This document shows, piece after piece, positions 6,177 through 64,000 of a stretch of 64,000 nucleotides of DNA. The position numbers and the translations under genes are program-made. Origin of the DNA: an uncultured Bdellovibrionales bacterium (lineage in GTDB: Bacteria > Bdellovibrionota > UBA1018 > CAIPTA01). The stretch covers positions 385,184 to 449,183 of the forward strand of contig CAZKBU010000001.1 in the NCBI GenBank assembly GCA_964551325.1, in the 5' to 3' direction. The notes under the pieces were generated by a model. That model was given only the letters and a program-made list of their open reading frames with translations, searched no databases and was not told the origin of the DNA. Within the stretch, counting starts at the first letter, position 1; every line of letters starts with the position of its first letter.

Positions 6177-6252
6177 TGGCCCCGCTGTTGCGATACCTCT
6201 TTGCAAACAAAGCGGTACGTAAGCAGCAAACAAAGTAAGAAGGACCCAACCC

Positions 6253-6381
6253 ATGAAGAAGATCATCACCGCTGTAATGGTACTCGCTGGAATCTGGTTC
6301 GCCGCTAACTACACCGTGAAGGTGGAAATCTCCGCTAACCAAGCGCAGGCAGATTGCGGAGAAGAAAACGGCTGCCGATAA
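6253..6381 (+). CDS. Small 42 aa peptide MKKIITAVMVLAGIWFAANYTVKVEISANQAQADCGEENGCR. It has an N-terminal hydrophobic (signal or TM-like) segment and a C-terminal C-x5-C motif.
   Basis: Hand-translated because it is below the ORF-track length cutoff. AAGGA Shine-Dalgarno sequence 8 nt upstream of the ATG. The stop lies 1 nt from the stop of the convergent cyclase gene. A paralogue exists at 45375..45500. Confidence 0.5.
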   Translation: MKKIITAVMVLAGIWFAANYTVKVEISANQAQADCGEENGCR

Positions 6382-6382
6382 G

Positions 6383-8434
6383 TTAGGCGGAAATTTTTCC
6401 GGTCTTTACTTGGCCGGATAGTTCGAAAAAGAAAAGGTCTCGGGTGCCCACATCGCGCACCGAGGCCTTTTCTCTTTTAAGAAGCTCAAATCTTCCCTTG
6501 GCCCCAAAGACGAGTTTCTCTTCCAGCACAAGCACAGATTTTGACTTCTCGCAGAGAGCCTTTTCACATTCCAAAATTCGCGCCACATCTTTAAACCCGG
6601 TTTCTCCCGGCGCATCTTCAAAATCCTCGAAGCGCTTTCCAGAAACGGTTTTATAGATGGGATGAATGCCGCCCGCTACGAGGGCTGCCCGAAAATGAAT
6701 GGGCGCGCCGGATTCCTTTTCAAATTCCACGCCCATCTTTTCCATCGCCTGGAGCGCATCGAGCGCCTTAGTCAACACCTGCGCCGACTCACCGGGGAAA
6801 AATCCAAAAAACGAATCACCGCCACTCGAAATGTGCTCACCGCCATGGGCCTTCATCACCCCGGTGGCCGCCTCACACCAGCGAGTGGGAAGTTTTGTGG
6901 CGAGGCCTTTTTCGGCGCTCACATCATAGAGCCTGCTCGAAGCTTTCAAATCCACATGAAGCAAAATTCCTTGGAACACGCGCTGCTCTTTAGCCATCGG
7001 ATCGTGAAAGCGGGAGCCCACCAAAGTTTCTTGCACGAAATCGAATTCGCGATAGTCGCGAAAGATAAAGGCGCCCAAGATGGCAACCAGCAAAAACTGC
7101 AGAGGCCGGTGATAAACTGCCTGCAATCCGATCAAACCATTTCCAAGGAGCCCAGTTTGAATCAAATACATTCCGAAAATAAACCCCAACACAACCCCAA
7201 ATTGCACCGTCCGCTTGGCTCGCAATTCCATCTTGCGGTCACCACCCCGACCCAATGCCAGGCGCTTTACAAATTCTGCTTGTGAAAAGCACGCCAGCGC
7301 ACCTACAAAATACATGAAAGGCACAAGCCACTTCGCTAACTGAGCGCTCAGGAAAAAGAAATCGCTCCCCTGTGTGGCCGATCGATAGGCCACCGTGAAG
7401 GCGATGAGCCCCACACCAAAGACCCAATAAACTGTATCTTTCCTCGCTCGGGCATAAGCAAGACCAAGAACCGCACCCAAAACTCCTTCTGAAAACCTGA
7501 GCCCGAGATCCGTGAGGTAGAAATCCGAAATCGACATCGTCCACTTCACCACGCCCCAATGCATGATCTGAATCGCGCACAAGCAAAGCGCAAACAAGCT
7601 AAACGCCAGATACTCCGCCCGATCGGGTACGCTCGCCCACAAAAACAAGAACACTGCGAAAACCACCAGACCCGTGATCCCAAAGGCCAAGGGCCGCGCA
7701 ATCGTGGTGGTCACCCACAAGTTTCTAAAATCCTTCGCACCCTGCTGAGAAAACACTCCAGTGGGATAGGGCGCACCCACCGCCAGCGGCCACGCGGATC
7801 CCAAAGTATGCGTAACCTCCACCGCCACGAGCACACCGCTCGCGCGAGCCCAGTCGGCAGGAGTCAAAGCAAAAGAAACAGGAAGGAAATCATTCCCGTC
7901 ACCAGAACGGCGAATGTCCCCGTTCACGTAAATCCGATAGGTCGCATTGATGTGACCCACCACCACGTCCCAGGCCTCGCCACCAAACGGTCCGCGCCAG
8001 CGCGATCCGTCGAGCCAATAGCCCGCCCAGAAGCGTGTGCCCTGGGCGGCACGGGCGCGCATTGTGAAATCCTTATCCGCCAACGAAGCCTTGGCCGTTC
8101 GCAGCGGCGAACTCACGGGTGAAGCGTAACAACTCGCGCCACCGCCACACTCCGGTCCGCCATCCCAAACCACCATCCAATCGGCGCGGGGGATCTCCAA
8201 AGCCGGCCGCGACGCGAATGCCTCTTCAAAAAACTTTTTGATCGGCGCGGTGAATCCGAGCGCGATCACCGCCACTAAAAAAAACAGCATGGCAAAATCC
8301 ACCATGCGGCCGCGGCGCACGTATTCCCGCCAGTCCACGCCCTTGGGCCGAGCCAATAGCTCACCGATTCGATAGAGGGGCTCGCGTACAAATCGAAAGA
8401 AATTCATGCCTCTTCTCATCGGAATTCCGAGCAT
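6383..8434 (-). CDS. 7TM-DISM receptor fused to a class III adenylate/guanylate cyclase domain.
   Basis: N-terminal TM helix, an extracellular domain of about 200 aa, a 7-TM block, then a C-terminal cyclase-like domain (HVD..., GGDSF, RAALVAGG). The ORF-track start at 8647 would overlap the nitroreductase gene, so a Met near 8434/8419/8407 is the more likely start. Confidence 0.7.
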   Translation of the reverse strand: MLGIPMRRGMNFFRFVREPLYRIGELLARPKGVDWREYVRRGRMVDFAMLFFLVAVIALGFTAPIKKFFEEAFASRPALEIPRADWMVVWDGGPECGGGASCYASPVSSPLRTAKASLADKDFTMRARAAQGTRFWAGYWLDGSRWRGPFGGEAWDVVVGHINATYRIYVNGDIRRSGDGNDFLPVSFALTPADWARASGVLVAVEVTHTLGSAWPLAVGAPYPTGVFSQQGAKDFRNLWVTTTIARPLAFGITGLVVFAVFLFLWASVPDRAEYLAFSLFALCLCAIQIMHWGVVKWTMSISDFYLTDLGLRFSEGVLGAVLGLAYARARKDTVYWVFGVGLIAFTVAYRSATQGSDFFFLSAQLAKWLVPFMYFVGALACFSQAEFVKRLALGRGGDRKMELRAKRTVQFGVVLGFIFGMYLIQTGLLGNGLIGLQAVYHRPLQFLLVAILGAFIFRDYREFDFVQETLVGSRFHDPMAKEQRVFQGILLHVDLKASSRLYDVSAEKGLATKLPTRWCEAATGVMKAHGGEHISSGGDSFFGFFPGESAQVLTKALDALQAMEKMGVEFEKESGAPIHFRAALVAGGIHPIYKTVSGKRFEDFEDAPGETGFKDVARILECEKALCEKSKSVLVLEEKLVFGAKGRFELLKREKASVRDVGTRDLFFFELSGQVKTGKISA

Positions 8435-8517
8435 CCGACTCAAATCTTGCCTCAATTCTTTCCGAAGAAACCCGACTGATCTACACGGGTCCGTGACCCT
8501 CGTGGTATAAACGCGCC

Positions 8518-9111
8518 ATGGCCGCCGACCAACGCTCGATTTACGACCTGATTCGCTCCCGTCGCAGCATCCGCAGCTACGTGCAGGGAAAGCCCATTCC
8601 CCCGGAAATGCTCGATCGCGTGCTCGAAGCGGGTCTCTGGGCCGCATCGGGTAAGAATCAGCAGAACTGGCGATTCTTTGTTCTCTCCGGCCGGAAGAGA
8701 GACGAATACCTCTCCCTCTCCCAGAAGAGCTGGCTCTCGATCAAAGACAATCTCGAAAAACGCCTCAAGCCGAGTCTCTACAAATTCACGGAGCGTTTCT
8801 TTTTCACCATGGGCGATGCACCGGTGGTGGTCATTGCGTTCGCCGATCTCAACGATCAGGACCATCCGCAAACCCAGATGGGGAATGTGTATCTCGCCGT
8901 GGACAACATGGTGCTCGCCGCTCAAAGCGAGGGCCTCGGGAGTTGCATTCTTGGAAGTCCGCTGGAGATCGAGAGCGACGTGCGCAAGTTCCTCGGCGTC
9001 ACCCAGCGGAACTGGAAGCTGATCTGCGGACTCACGGTCGGCTGGCCGAACCATGAGCCACCGACGCCTAGCCGACAGACAGAAGGCCGGATCATTCGCC
9101 TCGCGGACTAA
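8518..9111 (+). CDS. Nitroreductase family protein.
   Basis: RSIRSY motif, 197 aa, typical NfsB/NfnB-like fold signature. Confidence 0.8.
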   Translation: MAADQRSIYDLIRSRRSIRSYVQGKPIPPEMLDRVLEAGLWAASGKNQQNWRFFVLSGRKRDEYLSLSQKSWLSIKDNLEKRLKPSLYKFTERFFFTMGDAPVVVIAFADLNDQDHPQTQMGNVYLAVDNMVLAAQSEGLGSCILGSPLEIESDVRKFLGVTQRNWKLICGLTVGWPNHEPPTPSRQTEGRIIRLAD

Positions 9112-33813: not shown

Positions 33814-35811
33814 TTACATCTTCGGTGCGCCCGACTCTCCCGGCTCAAGAATCTGTGGGGTCACAAATACCATTAGCTCGTTCTTTAACCACGTATCACG
33901 CTTAACGTTAAAGAGCGGCCCCAAAAAAGGAAGATCCTTAAGGAGAGGAACGCCATCATCTTCGTTTGACTGTTCAAAGCGGTAAACCCCACCCAGAACA
34001 AGAGTCGATCCGCTCTCCACCAGAACCTGTGTCTCTATCTTTTTCTCTGCAATGTCTCGAGCCTGGTTGGGGCTGGAGTTGGAGATATCAAGGTCCATCA
34101 GGACCGCCCCACTGTTTGTAACTTGTGGGGTTACACCCAGCTTCACACCGGCAACCACTTGCTTGATCTCCGTGCCTCCATTTGTCGTGGAAACAACAAA
34201 GTTGAGCGTAGTTCCGTCAATTACCTGTGCCTTTTGTTTGTTATTCACAACAAGCCGAGGCGATGCCACCGTCTTCGAAAGCCCGCTGGTCTCACCCAGC
34301 TGCAATCGAAGATTTAAATTTCCATGCTGACCGGCACCAAGTTGAAAACCGACACCCATCCCCTCAGACCGCGACGACACCACGAATCCTGCCGGCGCCC
34401 CGGCGCCAAGCGTAGTTGAGGCTCCGTTTACTGCTGCGCCAATTCCCTGCCTTCCGCTGCTGCGATTAGACGCCTTACCGGACCACTGAACACCAAGATC
34501 CTTGGCCCAGCCTTCCTCGGCAACCACAATTTTTGAATCGATCAACACCTGAGGAAGCGGAACATCCAACTCCTTCACAAGGCGGCGTATGCGCTCAACC
34601 GCTTCTTTTGTGTTGGTGACAACGAGAGAGTTCGAACGCTCATCGACTTCGATTTTTCCTCGCACGAACGAGGGCTTAATCTTAACCTCTTGGTCATCCT
34701 CTTTCTGAAGCTCCACGGATATTTTTCCCAGGTCAGCTTTTTGCCCAACCGCCTCAGCCTTCGCAATTCGATTCTGAATTTCCGCCACCTGTCTGTCGAG
34801 ATCGAGCTTTTCTCTCTCCTTTTTGACACGCTCGTCTTCGCCCTTGTTTTCTTTTTCCTCATATTTGTAGAGCAGTTTATCAATCATCGTCTGGAGGTCT
34901 TTTGCTTTTGCAAAACTAACCGGAATGATCGCCATAATTGTTGGCTCCAGCTCATCGGAAAGCACTTTTTTCTGCACGATCTTCACCAGCTTGGAACGAC
35001 GCTCCTCCTCCCGCTTCCGGTACTCCTCTCCTGTTACAATATGAATAACGTTCCCAACCGCATCCGCACGCAAGCGGTGCTGCTGCAACACGATGTCGAG
35101 CAGCTGGTCCCATGGAACATCCTTCAATGAAACCGAGATAGTGCCGCTGATTTCCGTAGAGGTGACAATATTCAGTCCACTGGTCTCGCCTACGAGCTTG
35201 AAGATACTGTGGATGTCGGCGTCTTTTGCCTCAAAGCTCACCCGTGAACCCTTATAGGTGCGTTTATCCACTTCGGTATCAAGCGTTTCAACAAGCTGCT
35301 TAGCCACCTTAGTGCTCTCACTGTAGGTCGGAGCGGCGTCTTTGGTTGAAATCTCGTCTCCAATCATCACCACATCACGAGACTTCTTGGCGGAAGGTTT
35401 TGCTGCTACTGCGGGAACACCAGTTGGCTTCACTGCTGCCAGACTAAGAATGAATCTCCCGCTTGCATTTCTATGCACAACCGAAGTTTTTCCGCGAAGC
35501 TGGATTACAAGCTTAACTTTGGGGTCCTTGGTTCCTGCATTGTATGGCGTAACCTGAACCACCGGAGACTCCGCCGATGAGGAGTCAATCGTCCGAGTAA
35601 GGCGCGCTGGCAGCTGAATCCCTGAAGCCTCTACCACCACCTGATCAAAATCTTTTAACTCACGCACCTGGAACGCTGCCGAAGACTGGTGATTGAGCTC
35701 AATGGTGGCCACACCTCCCGACGCAGTCATTTTCAGATCTTTTGCCAGCACTGTCGCGCTCGCATCCACCGACATCAAAGCTAAAAGCAAAAGTACCATT
35801 CGCTTGCCCAT
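33814..35811 (-). CDS. pilQ: Type IV pilus secretin PilQ.
   Basis: Signal peptide, AMIN-like N-terminus and secretin C-terminal signature (VLGGVYRF...VPLLKDLPFLGPLF...ELMVFVTP). Confidence 0.9.
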   Translation of the reverse strand: MGKRMVLLLLALMSVDASATVLAKDLKMTASGGVATIELNHQSSAAFQVRELKDFDQVVVEASGIQLPARLTRTIDSSSAESPVVQVTPYNAGTKDPKVKLVIQLRGKTSVVHRNASGRFILSLAAVKPTGVPAVAAKPSAKKSRDVVMIGDEISTKDAAPTYSESTKVAKQLVETLDTEVDKRTYKGSRVSFEAKDADIHSIFKLVGETSGLNIVTSTEISGTISVSLKDVPWDQLLDIVLQQHRLRADAVGNVIHIVTGEEYRKREEERRSKLVKIVQKKVLSDELEPTIMAIIPVSFAKAKDLQTMIDKLLYKYEEKENKGEDERVKKEREKLDLDRQVAEIQNRIAKAEAVGQKADLGKISVELQKEDDQEVKIKPSFVRGKIEVDERSNSLVVTNTKEAVERIRRLVKELDVPLPQVLIDSKIVVAEEGWAKDLGVQWSGKASNRSSGRQGIGAAVNGASTTLGAGAPAGFVVSSRSEGMGVGFQLGAGQHGNLNLRLQLGETSGLSKTVASPRLVVNNKQKAQVIDGTTLNFVVSTTNGGTEIKQVVAGVKLGVTPQVTNSGAVLMDLDISNSSPNQARDIAEKKIETQVLVESGSTLVLGGVYRFEQSNEDDGVPLLKDLPFLGPLFNVKRDTWLKNELMVFVTPQILEPGESGAPKM

Positions 35812-44560: not shown

Positions 44561-45124
44561 TCACAAATAGACCTTCACGCCGCAGACTTTGTGGATGTCC
44601 TTTAGAGTCGGGTTTCGTGTCACTAAATAGGCGCCGTGATCCAGGGCCATTTGAACCAGTTCGGCGTCCACGGTCGACACATTTCGTCCCTTGCCATAGA
44701 GGTGTGATTTCAAGGTGGCCACTCTTTTCCAGCGCCCCCCGTCGGCGGGGATTTTGGGGATTCGGAATAAAATGGCGTCGACGTCCTTAAGAACCGGCCC
44801 CAAGTCGGCATCAGCGGATAGTTCGGCGGCCACCATGTCGGGGACCCGCAGTGCGCCCGCGAGAAGCGCGAAATCGAGCACGGGGATTTCTTCTTTGGAT
44901 AAAAGCCAGTTTCGCAGAGCGGAAGTGTCGGCGAAGATCACCATGCTCTCCGGCGCTTTCCTCTGGAGCCGTGCCAGGATGTTTCTCGCCTCCAGGCGGA
45001 AAATGTGGTCGAGGCCCTCCACGAGAGTTTCGGTGATTCCCTCACGGGTCGACGCTTGGGCCGCTGCCAGAAGGGACTCGGGAAGGTTGGCCGTGATGCG
45101 CTTAATTGTGCCCTGGGATTCCAT
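44561..45124 (-). CDS. PIN-domain protein (VapC-like) with an N-terminal extension of about 55 aa resembling a ribbon-helix-helix antitoxin.
   Basis: PIN acidic residues (VIFADTSAL ... [25 protein letters not shown]). N-terminal segment [13 protein letters not shown]... Confidence 0.55.
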
Positions 45125-45191: not shown

Positions 45192-45211
45192 GTATTGATT
45201 TGGATCAATAC
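45192..45211. promoter_or_regulatory. Perfect 20-bp palindrome GTATTGAT-TTGG-ATCAATAC matching the CRP/FNR-family box TTGAT-N4-ATCAA.
   Basis: Read from the sequence. It sits in the divergent region between the PIN gene and small peptide gene 2. Confidence 0.35.
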
Positions 45212-45374
45212 ATTTGGGCCCAACCATCTAAAATCACTGGTGAAAAAACGACACCCCTCCCCGCTGCGCGGCATAATTCTGGCATGGCTCGCAAAGGATA
45301 CATCTTTGATTTCAAATGGTTACGTACGGTCCAGACCTTGCGACATTAGCCCCTGAACCCATCACGGAGGTCCC

Positions 45375-45500
45375 ATGAAAAAGGTACTTACGGTTCTGGC
45401 CCTAGCACTCACGATCGGCACCGCCGCCTACGGACTGGCTCAGTCTGTGGACGCTGGCGCCGTGACGGCGCAGGCCTGCCAAGGTTCTACCTATTGTGAG
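45375..45500 (+). CDS. Small 41 aa peptide MKKVLTVLALALTIGTAAYGLAQSVDAGAVTAQACQGSTYCE. It has a signal-peptide-like N-terminus and a C-terminal C-x5-C motif.
   Basis: Hand-translated. GGAGG Shine-Dalgarno sequence 5 nt upstream of the ATG. Followed by an intrinsic terminator. Paralogue of the peptide at 6253..6381. Convergent with the second receptor cyclase gene. Confidence 0.5.
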
Positions 45501-45520
45501 TGAAGACTTTCATTAGGATT

Positions 45521-45554
45521 GAGGGGGGCCTCGAAAGGGGTCCCTCTTTTTTTT
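45521..45554 (+). terminator. Rho-independent terminator (GC-rich hairpin plus a T8 run) after small peptide gene 2.
   Basis: GAGGGGGGCCTCGAAAGGGGTCCCTC followed by TTTTTTTT. Confidence 0.5.
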
Positions 45555-47430
45555 ACGCCGCTCGAAGCACGGAGCGGGACAAACGCAAAATTCGCGCGCG
45601 GAATTTCTGGCCCTTCACCAAGTACGGAATGGGCTCTGAAACCGTCATCCCCGCGGGCACTTCCACGGACTCATCCACCAACACGGTCCCCGCCTCGGCA
45701 GCCGACTGCAAACGAGCCGCCCGATTGATCGGCTCCCCTAAGAAACTAAACTCTGCGCTCTTAAAGTGGCAGGTCACAGATCCGCTCGCTACGCCCACGC
45801 GGAATCGCAGACGCTCATCAAAGAGGGAAAGATCGGCAATCCGAGAGGCCGCATAGAGAGCGTCTTCCTCCTGACCCAACCCCCAGCGATAGACAGATCC
45901 ATCACCCGTATCGGAGATCTTTTCCCCGCCCAAGGAGGTCACGATGGGCTGCAAGGAATCTTTCAGAACCTGATTTAAGCGATCGCGCTCTTCCGCTTTG
46001 GCCACGGCCAATTGTTTGGTGTAGCCCACGGCATCCACCACCACGATCACCGCATCCGACTTCACCAGAGCGTGCTGGGCTCCAGACGCGGCCAGCCGAG
46101 CCACGTCGCCCGGAAGCATTTCTTTTGAACGCAAATACACGCCTTGCAGCCCACGGAAGTCCGCCACCATCAATGCGCCGAGGGCCGTGAAAATTCCCGC
46201 GTCGAGAAGTTCAGGATAGCGCACCACCAAGAACTGAAAGAACGCTCCCGCGTTGGCGGTTTTATGAAAGAACGCCACACCCAAACACAGCGCCAACACT
46301 CCCAATTGTGCCGCTCGGTGGCGCACACCAACCACGAATCCCAGGTGAATGGCTACGGCAGAAACCACCACCATTGCGGGAAGGAGCGCCACCCAGGGCA
46401 TCCAGCGATAGGAGGCTTGGAAAAGCGGAATCCACTTCGATTCGCCAGCAATCACGCCCGCTATCAAGGGCACTAAGAAAAGGAATGCGGACCATGCGGC
46501 CGCAAATCCCAATCCCCGTCGATTGAACCGCAGCATTTCCGCCACGAAAAGCGGCACCATTGCGGTGGCGAGCACTTCGAAGAAAAAGATCGCGCTGTTT
46601 CGGAACAGGTAATCTTCATAAAAGGGATTTAAGCGCCAGTATCCAAATGCGGAAAGCCCGCTCGCCAAGGTGTAGCCGGCGAACCATAGGTACTCCCGAC
46701 GAAGCGGCATGAACACGAAGAGCGCCGCAAAGATCAAAAACAGTGAGAGCTTGAAAGCCACCGGTAACAACGGTTTAGCAATAGTTTGAAACTGATAGTC
46801 ACGCTCTTGATTTAGAAGGATTCGTGAGCGGCCTACTTGTACGGGGTTGAAGTGCACTATTCCTCTATACGGACTCGCCGAACGTCCAACTTGAACGACG
46901 AGATCCAGCTCCCCGCCCCGACCCAAATGCAACGGCTGCAAACGATGAAGCGCAAAGGCCACTTCTCCCCCGGACCCCACGAGTTCCCCGTTGATCCATA
47001 CCGCATGGGGGCCCTTGATGCTTCCAAGAGAAAGCGACAAGTCCTCGCCGAGCAAATTTTCCGGCACGCGCACGCGAGTGCGGTACCAAATCTCATCGGG
47101 CAGATCTCGTGCCGCCAAAGGCTTCGGCACTTCCACGCGTGACGACTTTTCCCAGCCGCGGCCGACCGCTCGGCAAGGCAGCGCACGTCCGGCGACCGTG
47201 CAAGTTTCAGAGGCACCAGCGGAAAATTCCCACTCCCCCTCCAGGCGCAAGCCCGAGGGGTCCACGAATCGTGCCGGATCCACGTACCAACGTGCGGCGA
47301 AAATCGTAACTGCCACCAAACCCAAAGCGACCAGACCTAGCGCCACACGCGGCGCCAGACCCAATGGACGCGGACCATGACGACTCACGGTTTCAACAAC
47401 GGCAGCCAGTTTGCGAAGGGTCTTTCCCAT
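45553..47430 (-). CDS. 7TM-DISM receptor fused to a class III adenylate/guanylate cyclase (paralogue of 6383..8434).
   Basis: N-terminal TM helix, an extracellular domain, a 7-TM block, and a cyclase domain with DAVGYT and SDTGDGSVYRW motifs. Confidence 0.75.
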   Translation of the reverse strand: MGKTLRKLAAVVETVSRHGPRPLGLAPRVALGLVALGLVAVTIFAARWYVDPARFVDPSGLRLEGEWEFSAGASETCTVAGRALPCRAVGRGWEKSSRVEVPKPLAARDLPDEIWYRTRVRVPENLLGEDLSLSLGSIKGPHAVWINGELVGSGGEVAFALHRLQPLHLGRGGELDLVVQVGRSASPYRGIVHFNPVQVGRSRILLNQERDYQFQTIAKPLLPVAFKLSLFLIFAALFVFMPLRREYLWFAGYTLASGLSAFGYWRLNPFYEDYLFRNSAIFFFEVLATAMVPLFVAEMLRFNRRGLGFAAAWSAFLFLVPLIAGVIAGESKWIPLFQASYRWMPWVALLPAMVVVSAVAIHLGFVVGVRHRAAQLGVLALCLGVAFFHKTANAGAFFQFLVVRYPELLDAGIFTALGALMVADFRGLQGVYLRSKEMLPGDVARLAASGAQHALVKSDAVIVVVDAVGYTKQLAVAKAEERDRLNQVLKDSLQPIVTSLGGEKISDTGDGSVYRWGLGQEEDALYAASRIADLSLFDERLRFRVGVASGSVTCHFKSAEFSFLGEPINRAARLQSAAEAGTVLVDESVEVPAGMTVSEPIPYLVKGQKFRARILRLSRSVLRAA

Positions 47431-47463: not shown

Positions 47464-47868
47464 AAGTGGTGGTGGAACTGTAAGCCGGATTCTGTACCTG
47501 GTTTCCCAGGCGACAATCATTCCTCTAGGCCACCCGTTACCGTGTGGCTCCAGCGATACTACCCGCACACTTTGGGCGAGCAGCCCTCAGTCGTGTGCCT
47601 ATTTGATCTTGCTCCTAGCGGGGTTTACCGAGCCGCACGAATTACTTCGCACGCTGGTGGTCTCTTACACCACCGTTTCACCCTTACCTGATCCCCGTGA
47701 GGGGCCATCGGCGGTTTGCTCTCTGTTGCACTTTCCGTAACCGGAAACGAACTCACGTGTAATTCGTTTTCAATCCCTGGCCGTTAGCCAGCGCCACGCT
47801 CTATGGAGTCCGGACTTTCCTCCCCCCGGTCGAGCCGGGCGGCGATTGTCCATTCCACCACCAGGTGT
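47464..47868 (-). ncRNA. rnpB: RNase P RNA (bacterial type A).
   Basis: The reverse complement contains GGAGGAAAGUCCGGACUCC, AGUGCAACAGAGAGCAAACCGCCGAUGGCC and GGGGAUCAGGUAAGGGUGAAACGGUGG. P1 is formed by GGUGGUGGAA/UUCCACCACC, followed by a U7 run. Confidence 0.85.
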
Positions 47869-47872
47869 GCTT

Positions 47873-48349
47873 CTACCTCAGAGCGGGGATCGGGGGCAAT
47901 GTAAGAGGTCGTGCGTCGGGTGCGGCCTTAGGGGCAGCCAGCCAATAGCGCGAAACTGCTCGGTTTTCCTGAAAAGCCATGTCGGAGGTGCCGTCGCCCC
48001 GGCGGCGAATTTCCATCCCGAGGCCGCTGCCCAGAAACACGCTCGCGAAGCTGTCGCCAACCAGGAAATTTTTCTCAAAGGTCAGGAGGAGAGACTTTCG
48101 ATTGGTGAAAGCACCCAGCACTCCCACTTCATCTTTCACGGGAATCCAGTCGTCGGGCATTTTTCCTTCGCCGTATTTAGTCCAAATATTCTCGAGCGTG
48201 TCCACATCGAGCAGGAACCACTCTTTTCGCATCGGACCGGCGGGTTCCTGCTGGGAAAGAATTTCGTGCCATCCCTTGAACGAGTCCATTCGTCCGGCAA
48301 AGGCGTCGCCACAAATCAAAAATAAAAAAATCCACAACCACTTAGACAT
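47873..48349 (-). CDS. Hypothetical secreted protein (signal peptide MSKWLWIFLFLICGDAFA).
   Basis: 158 aa ORF. The overlapping plus-strand ORF is judged less likely. Confidence 0.4.
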   Translation of the reverse strand: MSKWLWIFLFLICGDAFAGRMDSFKGWHEILSQQEPAGPMRKEWFLLDVDTLENIWTKYGEGKMPDDWIPVKDEVGVLGAFTNRKSLLLTFEKNFLVGDSFASVFLGSGLGMEIRRRGDGTSDMAFQENRAVSRYWLAAPKAAPDARPLTLPPIPALR

Positions 48350-48836
48350 CCATATCCTCCCAGCGACGAACTCCTTTCGCCGCTCGCTTTGCCAGATCGC
48401 GCGCCGATGAATGTTCGCCGGTTCCCACGATCTTAGACAGCCGAATGGCCGCCCACGTTTCTTTGATCTTATTCTCCCACGCTCTGAGCTCCGGATCTCG
48501 GGATTTCGTCACACGGTTTTCCAGAAAATCCAGGGAAAATCCCGGAGGAAGGTTGAGATGAACCTTTTCGGATTTGAGACGGGCCGCCTGCTCCAATCCC
48601 CAGAACACGGCCTCCAGGAACACTTCTATCCGCCCGGCGTTTCCACGGAATCGAAGGGCGCTCACCAGATCCCGACCCCTCTTGTCGACCAACACCACGG
48701 CCCATCCGAGTCGAGCGGGCTTTCCTTCGCTCGCCACCGACACGTGAATAGTGCACTCTGGTAGAAATTCACTCATCGGATCTATCATAGCGGAGCCGGA
48801 GGATATTTCGACATGGCAAAAGGCAAGAACGGACAA
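48342..48836 (-). CDS. RNase H-like fold protein with apparently non-canonical catalytic positions.
   Basis: GWAVVL plus EVFLEAV...VHLNL segments mimic the RNase HI layout, but the conserved Asp positions are replaced. Confidence 0.4.
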   Translation of the reverse strand: MSVLAFCHVEISSGSAMIDPMSEFLPECTIHVSVASEGKPARLGWAVVLVDKRGRDLVSALRFRGNAGRIEVFLEAVFWGLEQAARLKSEKVHLNLPPGFSLDFLENRVTKSRDPELRAWENKIKETWAAIRLSKIVGTGEHSSARDLAKRAAKGVRRWEDMDV

Positions 48837-54347: not shown

Positions 54348-55104
54348 TTTTCTCTGCCTTGATTAACACCTTAAGGACACGGTTTATCTCATTTTGTCGC
54401 TCTACAAAAAACTGAGCTTGAGACGCCTTCTTTTTTCCAACCCTTGCCGTGATGATCCGACTATCGGGAAGAGAAAAAACGTCCTCATCCGTGTCGTCGT
54501 CTCCAATATAAAATGCACACTTAAGATCCAACTTAATCATGGCCTCCAGTAATGCTACACCCTTGTGCGGCCCCCCGGCAGGAATCAAGTTCATTACGCT
54601 TTTTCCCAAGATTACTCTCGGTGGCGGCTGTAGTTTTTCGATTAATGCAAAGAGGGACAATTTCGCCTTCTTCTTATTTCTAGACTTCCGATAATGAAGC
54701 GCGAGGGAGTACGTCTTGTCCTCCACAAAGGTGCCTGGGTCTGATTTCAGCGCTCCCCAATTGCTTCTAATTTGATCTGCCCAACCGGCGCAAACGCCTT
54801 TGGCTTTGGCTATAGAGTCCTTATGAATACCAAGCCCCTCCACACCATGATTGCCGATCAAAAGATTTCCGTGGAGACTAACCCGCTGCTTTAAATCAGA
54901 CACCGATCGACCTGAAATGATGGCGGTTGGAGCCAGTTCGGCCAATTCATTTAGGAGCCGCATCGTTTCAGATGAAATTCCCGCATCCTCTGGCTTTGAA
55001 ACAATAGGAGCAAGCGTCCCATCGAAGTCAAACGCATATAGAGCTTTTGTAAAAGATAATGCTTCGAGCACCCGCAGACCCGGGACTGAAAAGAGATTCT
55101 TCAT
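54322..55104 (-). CDS. otsB: Trehalose-6-phosphate phosphatase (HAD-IIB).
   Basis: FDFDGTL motif I and C-terminal GDDDTDEDVF. Confidence 0.8.
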   Translation of the reverse strand: MKNLFSVPGLRVLEALSFTKALYAFDFDGTLAPIVSKPEDAGISSETMRLLNELAELAPTAIISGRSVSDLKQRVSLHGNLLIGNHGVEGLGIHKDSIAKAKGVCAGWADQIRSNWGALKSDPGTFVEDKTYSLALHYRKSRNKKKAKLSLFALIEKLQPPPRVILGKSVMNLIPAGGPHKGVALLEAMIKLDLKCAFYIGDDDTDEDVFSLPDSRIITARVGKKKASQAQFFVERQNEINRVLKVLIKAEKNGKQNVGN

Positions 55105-57350
55105 CCACTCGATCCTTCTTGCAAAGAAGATTCACTCAAGCGAATTCGCCCCATTAGTCTTTGCCTTTGTCTCATGCGAGCCGCATCCATTAGCATTCGG
55201 CCAGCCCACCGGTAGACGTTATATTCTTGAACCAACCCTCTCATGCTTCGCATCCGATCCCTTTGCTCACTTACTGGCATTGTGAGGGCAATATGGAGAG
55301 CAGTAGCACACTGATCAATATTATACGGATTTACCACAAGGGCCTCGGGAAGCTCACGAGCCGCGCCCGTAAATTGACTCAAGATCAATACGCCTTTTTC
55401 ATCGTCACGGGCGGCAATAAATTCCTTTGCCACGAGATTCATCCCGTCGTGAAGACTAGTGACCATGCATACATCAGCGGCTCGGTAATTTTCAAACACC
55501 TGATCCGGCTCGTGGTGCTCCACTTTAAGACATATAGGCGCATAGCCTGGGCCTCCAAATCGATCATTGATTCTCTCGGCCAACGCACGCACCTCGGCAT
55601 CAAAATTTTGATACTGCTCAATGCTAGAGCGGCTTGGCGCTGCAATTTGGATAAACGAGAATTTTCCAATCCATTCCGGAAAAAGCTCCAAAAGTCGCTC
55701 CACCGCCATAAACCGCTCGATGATACCCTTGGTGTAATCGAGCCGATCCACACCAATTCCGATTCGTCGGTCTTGAGCCATTGAATTTCTAGTCAAAACT
55801 TTTTCCCGGCATTCAGAATGGGAACTTTGATTTTTCAGCCAACGCGGGGGCCATTCGATTGAGATGGGATAGTTTTGTACTGCGGTAAGTTTTCCACCAA
55901 ATGAAATCGTAGAGTTTTCGCGATCGAGTCTGGCTTCCAAAAACCGGTCTACAGTGTCTACAAAGTTATTGCAGTGAAATTTCGTGTGAAACCCGACTAT
56001 GCTGCTTCCAAGTAGGCCCGAAAGGATCTCCTCCCTCCACGGACAAATTCCAAATGCCTCCGGATTGGGCCAAGGAATGTGCCAAAATGTTATGATAGTG
56101 GCGTTAGGCAGTTTTTCCCGAATCATCTTCGGCAAAAGCGCAAAGTGGTAGTCTTGCACTAAAATTACCGGATCGTCGGTCTTAGATTCTTCTACAACCA
56201 CTTTGGCAAATTTTTCATTTACCTCAACGTACTGCTTCCAATCCGAAGTTCGAAATGTGGGTCGAGTATGGGCAATATGACAAAGGGGCCAGAGTCCCTC
56301 ATTTGAAAATCCATAGTAATAGCCGGCCTCCTGTTCCTTAGTGAGCCACACGCGCCTAATCTGATAGGAAGGATTTTCCGGAGGCACACGAACATGATCA
56401 TTTTCATCAACAGAGTCTCGGTCCGCAGATCCTCCGCCATGCGCAATCCACGTTCCAGAACAAGCCCGCATGATCGGCTCTAAAGCTGTCACCAATCCAC
56501 TTGCGGGCATTTGAATCTCAATCTTATTTTCCTTTTTGATGTGGATATAGGGCTCCCGGTTCGACACAATCAAAACTTCGTCGCCAGCCAAATCCTCATT
56601 GAGAATTTTTTTGAGGGTTTTCGGCGCCCATGCAATTTGTCCCACGTCCTTCACACGTCGGTCTTGTTCGAGATCGCGAACCAAAGCCCGTAGGTCTCTT
56701 GCAAGTGGGCGCAACTCTGGCGAGTAGACCTGGGAGTGCGCTTTCAATAACCCCTCACCCTTAAGAAGGGCCCTCATACCTTTCACAAGACCCCTTTGGC
56801 TAAACTGAGCAATCGCTACTGTTACAAACGAAATCACGGCCGCCAAGGCGACAAAGAGATAGAAAACATACGCTTTTGTGTCGCGATTTCTGCGGTCGAT
56901 GAAACTCATGTCATGGACGAGCATCAGCCTTCCCAGTGTTACTCCATCGGCCCTGATCGGGTGAACGGCAACATGTAGGGATCCGGATTGTTGTGAGATA
57001 ATTTTACTTTTCCCATCGTCCAGAAAATATGAGGAGTCGCACCTCAATTGTTGCGGAAAAGTGTGCGTCTTATAAAGAAGGGAGTTGCCGGTGTCGCAAA
57101 ATCCAAGAGCAAAAAGTCTTTCGTCTTGAATGGCTCGATCAAAAAATTTTGAAACTTTTACGGAAGACCTCGCGCGAATCAACTCTACAAGGGGCTCATG
57201 TATCGTGTTGGTAATGAGCCCAGATCGAATATCCAAGTCGCGGATAGACCACTTGAGAGTCAGCGCACCGGCCAAGGGGACGATCCCGTATGCGATCAAT
57301 CCAAGAACAACGGCAAGCGGTAAAATAAATCGAAGCGCTAATTTCACCAA
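55101..57350 (-). CDS. otsA: Alpha,alpha-trehalose-phosphate synthase (GT20) with an N-terminal membrane anchor and linker extension of about 280 aa.
   Basis: GT20 core (GFSNEGLWPLCH..., IITFWHIPWP). N-terminal TM helices. Confidence 0.85.
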   Translation of the reverse strand: MVKLALRFILPLAVVLGLIAYGIVPLAGALTLKWSIRDLDIRSGLITNTIHEPLVELIRARSSVKVSKFFDRAIQDERLFALGFCDTGNSLLYKTHTFPQQLRCDSSYFLDDGKSKIISQQSGSLHVAVHPIRADGVTLGRLMLVHDMSFIDRRNRDTKAYVFYLFVALAAVISFVTVAIAQFSQRGLVKGMRALLKGEGLLKAHSQVYSPELRPLARDLRALVRDLEQDRRVKDVGQIAWAPKTLKKILNEDLAGDEVLIVSNREPYIHIKKENKIEIQMPASGLVTALEPIMRACSGTWIAHGGGSADRDSVDENDHVRVPPENPSYQIRRVWLTKEQEAGYYYGFSNEGLWPLCHIAHTRPTFRTSDWKQYVEVNEKFAKVVVEESKTDDPVILVQDYHFALLPKMIREKLPNATIITFWHIPWPNPEAFGICPWREEILSGLLGSSIVGFHTKFHCNNFVDTVDRFLEARLDRENSTISFGGKLTAVQNYPISIEWPPRWLKNQSSHSECREKVLTRNSMAQDRRIGIGVDRLDYTKGIIERFMAVERLLELFPEWIGKFSFIQIAAPSRSSIEQYQNFDAEVRALAERINDRFGGPGYAPICLKVEHHEPDQVFENYRAADVCMVTSLHDGMNLVAKEFIAARDDEKGVLILSQFTGAARELPEALVVNPYNIDQCATALHIALTMPVSEQRDRMRSMRGLVQEYNVYRWAGRMLMDAARMRQRQRLMGRIRLSESSLQEGSSG

Positions 57351-57372
57351 AGTACTGTATTCTCATTTTACT

Positions 57373-57384
57373 TTGATATCAAAT
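57373..57384. promoter_or_regulatory. Perfect palindrome TTTGATATCAAA in the 51-bp divergent otsA / GH15 promoter region. Candidate operator.
   Basis: Read from the sequence. Resembles TTTGATTTCAAA upstream of peptide gene 2. Confidence 0.35.
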
Positions 57385-57401
57385 TAAAGTACGATTTTTG
57401 G

Positions 57402-59171
57402 ATGTATCCGTATGGCTTAATCGGAAATTGCCAGATTTCTGCCCTCGTTTCGAAAGAAGGCTCAATTGATTGGCTCTGCCTTCCGCGCCCCGACAGCGAT
57501 CCAGTTTTTGGAAAAATTTTAGATGAAAATGGAGGCCACTTTTCAATCAGCCACGATGGCGACAGCGCCTTTTCAAGGCAATACTACCGCGAAAACACCA
57601 ACGTTCTTGTAACTGAAGTTGGCAAACCCGGCGGCGACTGTTTCAGAATCACCGATTTTTGCCCAAGATTTGAACAGTTTGGACGCGTATACCGTCCTAT
57701 GTCGATTTTCAGAATCGTAGAACCAATCTCTGGATCGCCCTCCATTAAAGTGTCTTGTAAGCCGGTATCCGGATGGAACAAACAAGATGTAAAATCTATT
57801 CGCGGAAATAGCCATCTTCGCTTTGAAATCAGAGGCGATAGCTTGCGATTAACCACGAACATGCCCCTCACATACCTTTATGAGGAAACCTCTTTTCAGC
57901 TCAAAGAAAAAATTTATTTTGGCCTTACGTGGAGCACTGCGATCGAGGAAGATCTCATTCAAGTTAGCGAACGCTTTCTTCAACAGACCATTCAATACTG
58001 GCGCACTTGGGTAAAACACTGTTCCATTCCCAGTCTCTTTCAGCAAGAAACAATTCGGTCGGCATTAGCATTGAAATTGCATTGCTACGAAGATACCGGG
58101 GCGATTCTCGCTGCGCTCACAACAAGTTTACCTGAGGAGCCGGGGTCCACTCGAAACTGGGACTATCGCTATTGCTGGCTTCGCGATGCTCATTTTGTCT
58201 TATCTGCATTTCATAATTTGGGGCACTTTGAAGAAATGGAAGGATTTTTGAAGTTCTTCCTTGGGGTAGCCCAAAAACAAGAGACCTCAAGAGAACGCCT
58301 CGCCCCCGTTTACACTCTCAGCCAGGGGCTACCAATGCCCGAAACAGAACACCCCAACTGGGGCGGCCACTCGGCGAGCACTCCGGTTCGAACCAACAAC
58401 CAGGCAGCGGAGCATATTCAAAATGACGTTTATGGAGAGATGGTTTTAACCCTCGCGCCCATCTATTTTGATGAACGTTTTTTTCATCTTCGAGATAAAG
58501 ACCACGAAGATTTGTTGGCCCACCTCGCAAAACTCTGTGATCGATCCATCTCTAAACCCGACGCTGGTCTTTGGGAGGTTCGTGATGGATGGCAGGAACA
58601 CAGTTTTACTAACTTAATGTGCTGGGCGGGCCTGGAACGAATATCTCGAATTCAAAATTTCAATTACTTAAAGAATACATCTTTCGATATTTTGGCAGCC
58701 CGTGATCGTGCCCATGCGGCCATTGTCGCAGCCACAAAAGAGGGGTCAATTCGAAATGGGCCCACGGATTCTAGCCTAGACTCCGCCCTTTCACTTTCTG
58801 CCATCCTGCGCCTTCCCAATAATACTTTGTGCCTAAAGACGATTCAGGACATCCGAAAAAATCTCGCCCTAGATTCGGACACTAATTTTTTTTATCGCTA
58901 CACACGCAAAGACGACTTTGGTAAGCCCCGTTCGGCCTTCTTAATCTGCTCTTTTTGGATAGCGCATGCACTGGCTCGACTGGGTGAAAAAGAAGAGGCC
59001 AAACGTGTTTTTGAAAATGCCCTAACCTCGGCTAATCATGTGGGGCTGCTTTCAGAGCATTATTTGCCGTCGAGCAAAACACAGCTCGGAAATTTCCCTC
59101 AGGCCTATTCTCATGTTGGTCTCATCAACGCCGCGTTTGCCATCAGCCCACCTTGGAGTGAGGTTTTATAG
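57402..59171 (+). CDS. Glycoside hydrolase family 15 (glucoamylase / trehalase-like).
   Basis: N-terminal YGLIGNCQISALVSKEGSIDWLC GH15 signature. Length is 589 aa. Confidence 0.85.
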   Translation: MYPYGLIGNCQISALVSKEGSIDWLCLPRPDSDPVFGKILDENGGHFSISHDGDSAFSRQYYRENTNVLVTEVGKPGGDCFRITDFCPRFEQFGRVYRPMSIFRIVEPISGSPSIKVSCKPVSGWNKQDVKSIRGNSHLRFEIRGDSLRLTTNMPLTYLYEETSFQLKEKIYFGLTWSTAIEEDLIQVSERFLQQTIQYWRTWVKHCSIPSLFQQETIRSALALKLHCYEDTGAILAALTTSLPEEPGSTRNWDYRYCWLRDAHFVLSAFHNLGHFEEMEGFLKFFLGVAQKQETSRERLAPVYTLSQGLPMPETEHPNWGGHSASTPVRTNNQAAEHIQNDVYGEMVLTLAPIYFDERFFHLRDKDHEDLLAHLAKLCDRSISKPDAGLWEVRDGWQEHSFTNLMCWAGLERISRIQNFNYLKNTSFDILAARDRAHAAIVAATKEGSIRNGPTDSSLDSALSLSAILRLPNNTLCLKTIQDIRKNLALDSDTNFFYRYTRKDDFGKPRSAFLICSFWIAHALARLGEKEEAKRVFENALTSANHVGLLSEHYLPSSKTQLGNFPQAYSHVGLINAAFAISPPWSEVL

Positions 59172-62266: not shown

Positions 62267-64000
62267 TCAGCTGCTTCCATCAACGAAGCTCTTGAGGAGC
62301 CGCGCGCGCGACGAGTGGCGAAGTTTGCGCAGAGCCTTGGCTTCGATCTGACGGATTCGTTCACGAGTAACGAAGAAGTCTTGTCCCACTTCCTCGAGGG
62401 TGTGGTCGCTTTTCTCCCCGATACCGAAACGCATGCGGAGCACCTTCTCTTCACGGGGAGTGAGGGTGGCGAGCACGCGGCGGGTTTGTTCGGAGAGGTT
62501 GATGTTGATCACGGCCTCAGCGGGGTTGATGATGTTTTTGTCCTCGATGAAGTCGCCCAGGTAGGAGTCGTCGTCCTCACCGATCGGGGTTTCGAGGGAG
62601 ATCGGCTCTTTCGCGATCTTCAGCACCTTGCGAACCTTGTCCACCGGCATGTCCATCTTCTCTGCGATCTCTTCCGGAGTAGCCTCCCGGCCGAGCTGCT
62701 GCACGAGCTGGCGCGATGTACGCACGAGCTTGTTGATGGTCTCGATCATGTGCACGGGAATACGGATCGTGCGGGCCTGGTCGGCAATCGCGCGCGTGAT
62801 GGCCTGGCGAATCCACCACGTGGCGTAGGTGGAGAACTTGTAGCCTCGGCGATATTCGAACTTATCTACAGCCTTCATGAGACCAATGTTTCCCTCTTGG
62901 ATGAGATCCAAGAACTGGAGTCCGCGGTTGGTGTATTTCTTGGCGATCGACACCACGAGACGAAGGTTCGCTTCCACGAGCTCGGCCTTTGCTTGGTCCG
63001 CTTTAATTTCACCACGCATGGCTTCGTTGTAGATGCCTCTGAGCACATCCAGATCCACGCCTGACTGGTGCTCAATCTCTTTCACGCGCGTGAAGCCTTG
63101 CTCGTAAGCCGACGACATTTGTTCAAACTTCAAGGGCGAAACATCTTGCGAACGGCAAAATGCGGCGCGGGCCGCATCGTCGCCGGAGCGATATTTTTCC
63201 ACGAGCTTCATGAAGTCGGCGTGGGTTTTCACGTCGTAGAACTTAAGGGTGCGCTCCTGCTCGCCTTTCACGGCCTCGAGATCCGTTACCGGCTTCTTAA
63301 TCGCTTCCAAGAGGTAATTGATCGTTTTTCGATTGAAGGAAATCTGAAGGAAGGCCTTGGTCACATCGGCCTTTTTCTTCGTCATGTCCTTTTCAATTTT
63401 CTGCTTATCTTTTTGCGACACTTTCGGGTCGAGATAGATGAGCTTCACTTTCTTGAAGTGGTCGAGTTGCTTTCGAAGCGCCTTCATCGACTCGGCCAAG
63501 CGGTTCTGGTGGGCCTGCTCGTCTTCCTCGGAAATTTCTTCGTCCACGCCGCGAATCATGTCTTTCACGCGCATCTCGCCCTTGGCCACTTTCTCGGCAA
63601 GCCCGAGAATGGCGTCCACTCCGAGCTGGCAGCTGATCAGGGCTGCCACGATTTCTTCTTCGCCACTTTCGATGCGCTTGGCGATTTCCACTTCGCCCTC
63701 ACGCGTAAGCAAGGAAACGGAACCCATCTTGCGGAGATAGAGCTTTACCGGATCAACAGATCGGGTGCCGAAATCTTCTTCGGCCTTTTCTTTTTCCTCG
63801 GCTTCTTCCTCTTCGCCCTCGCCTTCAGCGGCATTCTTGGCTTTCGCGGTCTCTTCCACGTCGATGTCGTTGTCGGAGAGGAACTCCATCACAGCATCCA
63901 CCTTCGCGGCCTCAATAACCTCGGAGGGAATAAGGTCGTTCACTTCTTCGAAAGTGAGAACTCCGCGCACTTTTCCCAGCTCCAGGAATTTCTTGATGAG
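62267..64000 (-). CDS. rpoD: RNA polymerase sigma factor RpoD (sigma-70), 5'-partial because the N-terminus lies beyond the window end.
   Basis: Regions 2-4 signatures ([51 protein letters not shown]). The frame is open to position 64000. Confidence 0.9.

Follow-up and report, generated by a model that had tools for sequence, protein, structure and literature searches.

A short Cys-loop peptide gene convergent with a seven-helix receptor cyclase in an uncultured Bdellovibrionales bacterium: a candidate ligand-receptor pair

Described peptide and cyclase systems and the pep2-R2 locus

In animals, peptide hormones act through receptor guanylyl cyclases: ANP, BNP and CNP with GC-A/GC-B, and guanylin and uroguanylin, as well as the E. 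coli heat-stable enterotoxin STa, with GC-C. STa is made as a Sec pre-pro-peptide whose Cys-rich part is C-terminal. Among bacteria, signalling by peptides through cognate receptors typifies the Gram-positives. Here we analyze a 64,000-nucleotide stretch of DNA from an uncultured Bdellovibrionales bacterium (GenBank contig CAZKBU010000001.1, positions 385,184 to 449,183; the window hereafter), in which a gene for a 42-amino-acid peptide, pep2 (45375..45503, plus strand, stop codon included), lies tail-to-tail with the gene for a 625-amino-acid receptor, R2 (45553..47430, minus strand), that ends in a class III nucleotidyl cyclase homology domain (CHD). On the sequence analysis given below, the product of pep2 is quite possibly a Sec-exported disulfide-loop peptide that acts on the neighbouring receptor cyclase, as its cognate ligand or as a modulator.

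As proposed here, the pair would share with the animal receptor guanylyl cyclases a short exported peptide whose disulfide loop is essential, an extracytoplasmic domain to which it binds, and a cytoplasmic class III cyclase that forms the second messenger itself. The animal receptors, however, have a single transmembrane (TM) helix, a periplasmic-binding-protein-like ectodomain and a kinase-homology domain, whereas R2 has 1+7 TM helices and a sugar-binding-like β-sandwich. Moreover, peptide and receptor are here encoded side by side in one bacterium, and the peptides are unrelated in sequence to those of the animal systems. With AgrD/AgrB/AgrC/AgrA and ComC/ComD the locus has in common a conserved leader, a hypervariable mature part and the position of the peptide gene beside that of a membrane receptor; as in the Gram-positive pherotype systems, allelic variation of the peptide is matched in extracytoplasmic loops of the receptor. 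It differs from these systems in its cyclase output, Sec-type signal, sigma-54 promoter and diderm host, and in having neither a thiolactone nor an ABC exporter. No AgrB-like processing protein, histidine-kinase receptor or response regulator was found in either window locus or in the related loci.

A further comparison is with MgrB-PhoQ, since the peptide (42 against 47 amino acids) also has an N-terminal hydrophobic segment, a membrane sensor as its presumed target and a C-terminal tail that would lie in the periplasm and carries two Cys, as does that of MgrB, in which both Cys matter for function (PMC2789325, PMC8404706). Unlike MgrB, pep2 adjoins the gene of its presumed target, which is a cyclase and not a kinase, and its product has a hypervariable C-terminus and a signal-peptidase-like site.

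The 7TMR-DISM receptors, reportedly defined by Anantharaman and Aravind in 2003 and said to include RetS, NicD and RgsP, combine an N-terminal TM segment or signal, an extracytoplasmic carbohydrate-binding-like jelly-roll, seven TM helices and a cytoplasmic output domain. R2 has this architecture, but R2 and 15 of 16 relatives lack a match to the Pfam models. No 7TMR-DISM receptor with a genetically linked peptide partner was found in the literature searched. A class III domain fused to a polytopic membrane domain is also found in Mycobacterium tuberculosis Rv1625c/Cya and in the mammalian adenylyl cyclases, whose anchors are of the 6TM kind and for which no natural peptide ligand is known. 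In class III adenylyl cyclases such polytopic membrane domains are suspected of being receptors (PMC4821796, PMC9433096, PMC11606603), and their receptor role and ligands are a long-standing question (PMC4821796, PMC12414865, PMC11606603). Here, in contrast, a 7TM bundle and an ectodomain are accompanied by a candidate ligand encoded 50 nt away, which makes a directly testable pair. Literature searches on Bdellovibrio, peptides, cyclases, 7TMR-DISM and sigma-54 turned up no description of this peptide/receptor-cyclase module. The module belongs to none of the animal receptor-cyclase, Gram-positive pherotype or MgrB-PhoQ families. Its components have no precedent in bacteria, the receptor being a class III cyclase with a GPCR-like 7TM bundle, the peptide of the Sec/Cys-loop kind and the promoter of the sigma-54 type.

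The peptide gene pep2 and its transcription signals

The original prediction had placed at 45375 an open reading frame (ORF) for the peptide MKKVLTVLALALTIGTAAYGLAQSVDAGAVTAQACQGSTYCE, and both the ORF and the peptide proved exact. The GGAGG Shine-Dalgarno sequence that it described is present at 45366-45370 (+), 4 nt and not 5 nt ahead of the ATG; most homologous peptide ORFs also have a GGAGG or GGAG-like site upstream. Co-occurrence, which had been suggested as a check, was found throughout: an ORF of 40-43 amino acids, convergent to the receptor gene and 1-50 nt from its stop codon, is present in 9/9 receptor lineages with readable DNA (window/L001/L005, L007, L008, L014/L020, L012, L013, L015, L024 and L025). 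Receptor identity across these lineages, which include a Bdellovibrionales metagenome-assembled genome, a Bacteriovoracia metagenome-assembled genome and an uncultured Bdellovibrionales genome, goes down to ~30%. Close relatives in public assemblies have the same 42-amino-acid ORF in the same place. This nine-lineage co-occurrence excludes the contrary scenario raised with the prediction, random small ORFs standing beside independently duplicated cyclases.

The homologous peptides end in AYGLAASVEAAAVTAQACHGSSYCE (L007), AYLLAQAVNAKSVTAQACPEGTSYCG (L008), SYLLSQSINSKGVTAQACQGSYYCQ (L014/L020), GYGVAQYVNANGVTAKACNSGCE (L012), SYFVAEQAGSTSVSAYACSGTSQCE (L013), AYFVAQYSNSASVTAQAGCSTPDCE (L015), AYALNLATEGKASQAYACGSHYC (L024) and AYFVAAQAGSKSVEASACASAAC (L025). 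Each has an MKK start, a hydrophobic segment, the invariant Tyr, an A-x-A motif and a Cys pair spaced as Cys-x3-6-Cys; the invariant columns of the alignment are M1, K2, K3, Tyr19, Ala32, Ala34 and the second Cys, and the first Cys is present in at least 90% of the rows. Across lineages the differences at codon positions 1/2/3 amount to 0.445/0.322/0.648, whereas the 102 nt upstream of the ORF differ uniformly (~0.72). This codon-position pattern marks the small ORF as a conserved gene that encodes a protein. In a tenth lineage (P0011), known from gene calls only, a convergent 71-amino-acid gene is called directly after the receptor. Two distant receptor homologues of ~700 amino acids, P0032 and P0033, were checked for a partner peptide and none was found; these distant homologues have a canonical cyclase domain, a sensor part of another kind and a different gene context. 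Likewise, L021/L022 and L023 hold distant homologues of ~720-740 amino acids with the same periplasmic domain/7TM/cyclase plan and no partner peptide, and the gene in L021/L022 follows that of a conserved 438-amino-acid protein without a Pfam family.

Word-indexed protein searches returned 2-4 relatives each for the peptide and both window receptors, and an exhaustive HMMER search was needed to reveal the family, with ~15 full-length receptor clusters at 50% identity. Scanning of genome contigs with a single receptor query gave nothing, while the 16-sequence receptor alignment gave 2 loci; a metagenome scan gave 2 true loci, and 4 further cyclase-only matches were ignored. The module is invisible to current annotation because neither gene has a Pfam or NCBIfam family, although the peptide gene is called in some assemblies. 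Pfam and NCBIfam scans of six peptides produced noise-level, signal-peptide-like matches only, and the pep2 region had no Rfam match at the gathering threshold nor at E<=1.

Alignment inspection and hydropathy predict a Sec signal peptide at residues 1-18 (45375..45428, +), composed of MKK, a hydrophobic core and small residues at -3/-1 ahead of the invariant Tyr19, before which the peptide would be cleaved. The same arrangement holds for 9/9 R2-type peptides, with A/G/S/T at -3 and A/G/S at -1, and the hydrophobic cores span 12-15 residues. The C-terminal core, C-QGSTY-C-E (45477..45500, +), is a hypervariable loop bounded by two Cys, whose codons lie at 45477-45479 and 45495-45497. Other classes of small protein were considered and set aside. 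There is no lipobox [LVI][ASTVI][GAS]C directly after the hydrophobic region, the first Cys being at position 35, at least 15 residues past the hydrophobic core and preceded by A-Q-A, and matches of the peptides to LPAM_1 are below cut-off and confined to the N-terminus; the lipoprotein reading was thus rejected. A Flp/type IV pilin was dropped for want of a G/xxxxEY motif, and a type I toxin because the partner is a receptor gene and not an antisense RNA.

An intrinsic terminator follows pep2 at 45521..45556 (+), as had been predicted: a 12-bp stem with 7 G-C pairs and a GAAA loop (45521-45548), then a T8 run to 45556. It is the sole strong terminator-like site found by a scan of the surrounding 4 kb, and the hairpin appears in the minimum-free-energy fold of the predicted transcript. 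The T-run overlaps the TAA stop of the receptor ORF, in agreement with the convergent arrangement originally described. Strict terminator-like sites 3' of the peptide ORF occur in five loci (window, L001, L005, L008 and L024); looser hairpins were noted by eye elsewhere.

Upstream lies a sigma-54 type promoter, CGGTCCAGACCTTGC (45327..45341, +), with the -24 GG and -12 GC properly spaced. TGGC-N7-TTGC-like elements are found 46-76 nt upstream of the ATG in 11/11 peptide loci. Scored against TGGCAC-N5-TTGC (8 positions, GG and GC 10 nt apart), six of them are perfect (8/8), three match at 7/8 and two at 6/8; the pep2 element, at 6/8, belongs to the lowest-scoring pair. Shuffling of the upstream regions gives a perfect match by chance at <=0.003 per locus. 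The putative sigma-54 promoter is thus a feature shared by all the peptide genes and absent from the original prediction. Because pep2 has its own sigma-54 promoter and its own terminator, it is predicted to be an independent transcription unit with a transcript of ~200 nt, which upholds the proposal that the gene is transcribed on its own. Promoters of the sigma-54 type are silent without an AAA+ enhancer-binding activator, so pep2 should stay silent until such an activator fires.

A perfect palindrome, GTATTGAT-TTGG-ATCAATAC (45192..45211), sits ~115 nt upstream of the sigma-54 element. It is kept with an altered spacer at -178/-180 from the ATG in L001, L005 and L007 and is not recognisable in the more distant peptide loci; it may be a candidate enhancer-binding-protein site or an operator of the divergent PIN-domain gene. 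The TTGAT-N4-ATCAA that it contains, FNR/CRP-like, was rejected as a family-wide feedback site for a cyclic nucleotide monophosphate (cNMP) regulator, being perfect only in the window, L001, L005 and L007. Neither a cNMP-binding regulator nor a processing enzyme was found in the window. Directly upstream of the -24 element lies the motif TTTCAAATGGTTAC (45310..45323, +), IHF-like (TCAA-N4-TTA), which, with the loci aligned on the sigma-54 element, was seen by eye in the window, L005, L007, L014 and L008. L012, L013 and L015 have instead a conserved inverted repeat, GTCTCC-N4-6-GGAGAC, 25-45 nt upstream of the sigma-54 element, which may mark the site of another regulator or terminate an upstream transcript. 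A sigma-70-like site, ACGACA-18-CATAAT, is at chance level (1 found, 1.4 expected) and was set aside for the conserved sigma-54 element; as it reads a perfect TTGACA in L005, a second promoter is conceivable.

Receptor R2 and the paralogous pair at locus 1

Hydropathy and an AlphaFold2 model built from 16 homologues (mean pLDDT 81.9) give for R2 a positively charged cytoplasmic N-terminus, TM1, a periplasmic β-sandwich, seven helices and the cyclase domain, in this order. The β-sandwich (residues 55-201; 46828..47268, -) resembles a galactose-binding or GH2 sugar-binding domain, and the seven-helix membrane bundle (residues 202-437; 46120..46827, -), with Arg/Lys-rich cytoplasmic loops, is GPCR-like. 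R2 had been described as a 7TMR-DISM cyclase. The model and its fold matches agree with this in architecture, and the class III cyclase domain is present, but R2 had no match to the Pfam models 7TMR-DISM_7TM (PF07695) and 7TMR-DISMED2 (PF07696) at E<=10; PF07695 is matched by one of 16 receptor relatives (E 9.7e-5) and PF07696 by none. Hence R2 would be 7TMR-DISM-like by architecture and fold only.

The C-terminal domain (residues 450-617; 45580..46083, -) is an α/β domain with the CHD fold according to fold matches, which include GC-A structures and, among the best, Rv1625c. Its score against PF00211 (Guanylate_cyc) is 21.4 bits, the gathering score being 21.9, and 14 of 16 family members match this model at E<=0.1 (best 6e-10). 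D466, G509-D510-G511, R544, N569 and R573 are invariant in 16 receptor sequences; since these comprise the metal-binding Asp pair (D466, D510) and the transition-state Asn/Arg (N569, R573), the catalytic machinery of R2 is retained. Purine choice canonically depends on a residue pair, Lys with Asp/Thr for ATP and Glu with Cys for GTP. These positions, K...T in canonical distant homologues, are in R2 Ser506 and Ser562; K504 lies two residues before Ser506, and Ser562 is invariant in the family. As the specificity residues are Ser and pyrimidine cyclases are among the fold matches, the product may not be cyclic AMP. All receptors of the family (P0004-P0021 and R1; in the window 45553-45570, -) end in two small residues, AA, SA, VA, AS, VS or IS, reminiscent of C-terminal degradation tags.

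A six-frame regular-expression scan of the window revealed exactly one other ORF of the pep2 design. This ORF, pep1 (6253..6381, +), encodes the 42-amino-acid peptide MKKIITAVMVLAGIWFAANYTVKVEISANQAQADCGEENGCR, with its core cassette at ~6352-6381 and a perfect sigma-54 element, TGGCCCCGCTGTTGC, upstream (6177..6191, +). It lies tail-to-tail, with a 1-nt gap, with the gene for a second receptor, R1 (6383..8407, -). The long ORF of R1 extends over 6383..8647, but relatives start at MNFFRF/MSFFRF, ~240 nt (~80 codons) further in, and the N-terminal extension is probably not translated because it overlaps the divergent nitroreductase gene region; the likely start is thus MNFFRF at 8407. By BLAST, R1 and R2 share 26% identity over 140 residues; with hhalign, the R2-family profile aligns with R1 over 415 columns (probability 97.6%, E 2.9e-12), from the end of the β-sandwich through the 7TM bundle into the cyclase-like domain. 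When a peptide profile made from eight non-window homologues was run on the 868 window ORFs, pep2 came first (E 4.9e-20) and pep1 second (E 1e-3). These profile comparisons bear out the claim of a second, paralogous locus and the claim that the two peptides resemble each other above chance, and by them locus 1 is a genuine distant paralogous pair. Its neighbours, a methyltransferase and GT87 on one side and a nitroreductase and PilZ on the other, are unrelated to those of locus 2. That a paralogous pair, arranged alike and likewise under a sigma-54 promoter, recurs among unrelated genes argues that peptide and receptor were duplicated or kept as a unit. Of the cyclase-fold motifs, the C-terminal ~120 amino acids of R1 retain the two Asp motifs and the Arg, and, from its sequence, R1 may be a pseudo-cyclase or a heterodimer partner, perhaps inactive alone.

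Allelic variation, the proposed mechanism and rival explanations

Within 90% clusters, alleles of the peptides differ almost only in the C-terminal core. The six pep1 alleles (DCGEENGCR, DCGEENTCN, CAEENGCR, CADENMCK, CDENFCK and CAEENGCN) share an invariant 33-residue leader, and the three pep2 alleles (QGSTYCE, QGSLACE and HGSSYCE) have near-identical leaders. When the pep1 DNA of the window is compared with that of L010, a ~30-nt core cassette (6352-6383; ~3660-3690 in L010) is wholly different, while 155 nt upstream, the 99-nt leader and ~95 nt downstream are essentially identical; along most of the R1 gene of the same two loci, synonymous differences amount to 0.3-0.7 per site. The pattern suggests cassette exchange by recombination, or a nucleotide-level constraint on the flanks.

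Variation of the receptors is co-localised with that of the loop. R2 of the window (TY loop) and of L001 (LA loop) differ at 30 residues, 17 of which fall in the 96 outer-face residues (those of the juxtamembrane segment plus the outer helix ends and loops of the 7TM bundle), with 4.6 expected (P 9e-8). Between L001 and L005, both with the LA loop, only 2 of 26 substitutions are in outer-face residues; the differences concentrate instead in the β-sandwich (11 against 5.8 expected), alongside mid-peptide changes. A mosaic hypervariable block of R2 (residues 191-280; 46591..46860, -) covers the juxtamembrane segment, TM2-TM3 and the periplasmic TM3-TM4 loop; synonymous divergence (dS) is saturated at codons 191-267, and the nonsynonymous rate (dN) is 0.25-0.31 in 191-215 and 268-280. 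In R1, amino-acid divergence is strongest in the counterpart of the periplasmic TM3-TM4 loop and from TM7 through TM8. With few alleles, the variation suggests coevolving specificity alleles of ligand and receptor.

For the action of the peptide as a ligand we propose the following course. The peptide gene would be transcribed from the sigma-54 promoter once an activator fires, transcription stopping at its own terminator. The 42-amino-acid product would be exported by Sec and cut ahead of Tyr19, and the resulting ~24-amino-acid periplasmic or extracellular product would close a C-terminal disulfide loop between Cys35 and Cys41. The peptide would then bind the periplasmic face of the receptor, formed by the β-sandwich and the outer loops of the GPCR-like 7TM bundle, and the cytoplasmic class III cyclase domain would alter cyclic-nucleotide synthesis, in either direction. 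Loop sequence and receptor outer face would diversify together, giving rise to allelic specificity groups. This course is supported by the nine-lineage co-occurrence, the duplication as a pair, the signal-peptide features, the conserved leader and hypervariable core, the matched variation and the competence of the receptor.

Several observations weigh against it. The matched-variation argument is based on two or three allele comparisons and, because dS is saturated, the variable block of R2 is a recombination mosaic whose substitutions are not independent. The R2-type loci are orthologous and share a wider synteny (SDR, two small genes, rnpB, receptor, peptide, PIN, NadA), so their adjacency could be partly inherited; only locus 1, because of its different neighbourhood, breaks this concern. 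The hydrophobic segment, of up to ~20 residues, could be an uncleaved anchor, and pep1 has Asn at -1 ahead of the Tyr, a poor signal-peptidase site. A ~24-amino-acid peptide cannot pass porins and no exporter was seen, which makes an extracellular signal weaker as an interpretation than a periplasmic one. The cyclase-like domain of R1 has no alignable GxxxNxAxRxE (catalytic Asn/Arg) segment, and the product nucleotide of R2 is uncertain because the substrate Lys position is Ser506. Finally, no gene for an enhancer-binding protein (AAA+ activator) was found among the window ORFs scanned.

Some of these observations would be explained if the peptide were an uncleaved, MgrB-like small membrane protein (N-in, C-out) whose 22-residue periplasmic tail with the Cys pair docks on the receptor in cis. 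Such a protein would modulate the cyclase, probably inhibiting it, under sigma-54 control, and would be a feedback or gating device and not a diffusible signal. The stretch V4-A23 is long enough for a membrane span, the invariant Tyr19 is where an interfacial aromatic residue would be expected, no outer-membrane exporter is present, and co-occurrence and matched variation fit equally well. Its size and periplasmic Cys pair resemble those of MgrB, the 47-amino-acid PhoQ inhibitor (PMC2789325, PMC8404706). No sequence match to the MgrB family was found, however, with the Pfam/NCBIfam models at E<=10, and the small -3/-1 residues before Tyr19 in 9/9 R2-type peptides, preceded by a Gly or Ser that would break the helix, are the pattern of a cleaved signal. 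In addition, hypervariability is restricted to the extreme C-terminal loop and cassette-like, as is typical of diffusible pherotype signals; to our knowledge, C-terminal-loop hypervariability with cassette replacement has not been seen in cis-acting small membrane regulators. From the sequence, hydrophobic length and the missing outer-membrane route would favour a membrane-anchored modulator, whereas the -3/-1 pattern and the cassette hypervariability would favour a processed signal; we consider the anchored modulator, the chief rival, somewhat unlikely.

The remaining explanations are less likely. The peptide could be a small exported protein unrelated to the cyclase (for example a small toxin or a peptide of the envelope or of stress responses), adjacent through synteny alone, as the wider synteny is kept in all R2-type loci and the peptide gene has its own promoter and terminator. 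This is improbable given that the tail-to-tail layout at 1-50 nt recurs in the paralogous pair elsewhere, that the paralogous peptides are detectably similar, that loop variation coincides with variation of the receptor outer face, and that the distant receptor homologues, whose sensor is of another type, lack a peptide of this kind. The conserved-leader/hypervariable-core pattern also recalls the precursor of a ribosomally synthesized and post-translationally modified peptide (RiPP) or a bacteriocin, in which dedicated enzymes would modify the variable core and the product would act on other cells; at the N-terminus it faintly resembles the cittilin RiPP and Phr models (E 0.14-0.22, well short of their cut-offs). 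The leader, however, is of Sec type and not RiPP type, NCBIfam matches are noise-level, and neither locus is flanked by a modifying enzyme, an ABC exporter or an immunity gene, the neighbours at locus 2 being PIN, NadA, rnpB and small hypothetical genes, which leaves little room for this explanation. An untranslated element, either a small RNA or a 3' antisense region of the receptor transcript, would account for the unusual nucleotide-level conservation of the transcript region among close relatives and for a fold z-score of -2.65 (mostly from the terminator), and the convergent layout does imply a 3' overlap of both transcripts. Yet frame, length (40-43 amino acids), start context and amino-acid motifs are kept despite a 65% third-position against a 32% second-position difference, the Shine-Dalgarno sequence is conserved and Rfam gives no match even at E<=1, so that a non-coding element is highly improbable.

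If the peptide is indeed a ligand, the Bdellovibrionota, which are diderm and perhaps predatory, would have solved peptide signalling in a different way, with a Sec-exported Cys-loop peptide and a cyclase receptor. A broader proposal, possible but doubtful at present, is that Bdellovibrionota use such a peptide as a cell-cell or self-recognition signal, read by a GPCR-like 7TM receptor and converted directly to a cyclic nucleotide, where rapidly diversifying alleles of the loop and receptor face (pherotypes) and sigma-54 gating could close an autoinduction loop. If true, bacteria would have a parallel to the peptide hormones and receptor cyclases of animals, diderms would have their first peptide system of this kind for quorum sensing or kin recognition, and the membrane domain of a class III cyclase would for the first time have a natural ligand. 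The invariant leader, cassette-like loop and co-varying receptor face suggest natural specificity groups, useful for binding-site mapping and for the study of kin discrimination.

Neighbouring genes of locus 2

The RNase P RNA (300 bits; 47465-47861, -) ends 35 nt upstream of the R2 start codon on the same strand, and at the rnpB position the related loci show 500-650 nt free of genes; synteny of rnpB and receptor, possibly with read-through, may be conserved. Two overlapping hypothetical genes, 47873-48349 (-) and 48342-48836 (-), encode proteins of 158 and 164 amino acids without a Pfam family, and the same gene pair is kept ahead of rnpB and the receptor in L001, L012, L013 and L025. Divergent from pep2 is the gene for a 187-amino-acid PIN-domain protein (44561-45124, -). 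In other lineages this position is occupied by a separate gene of 66-82 amino acids and a PIN gene of ~130 amino acids, a VapBC-like pair, so the window ORF may be a fusion or mis-extended. As would fit a chromosomal region of a Bdellovibrionota-like bacterium, the window also has housekeeping genes for a PilQ-type secretin with an AMIN domain, for a trehalose-6-phosphate synthase (GT20) beside a GH15/trehalase-like gene, and for RpoD, at 33814-35811 (-), 55101-59171 and 62267-63970 (-).

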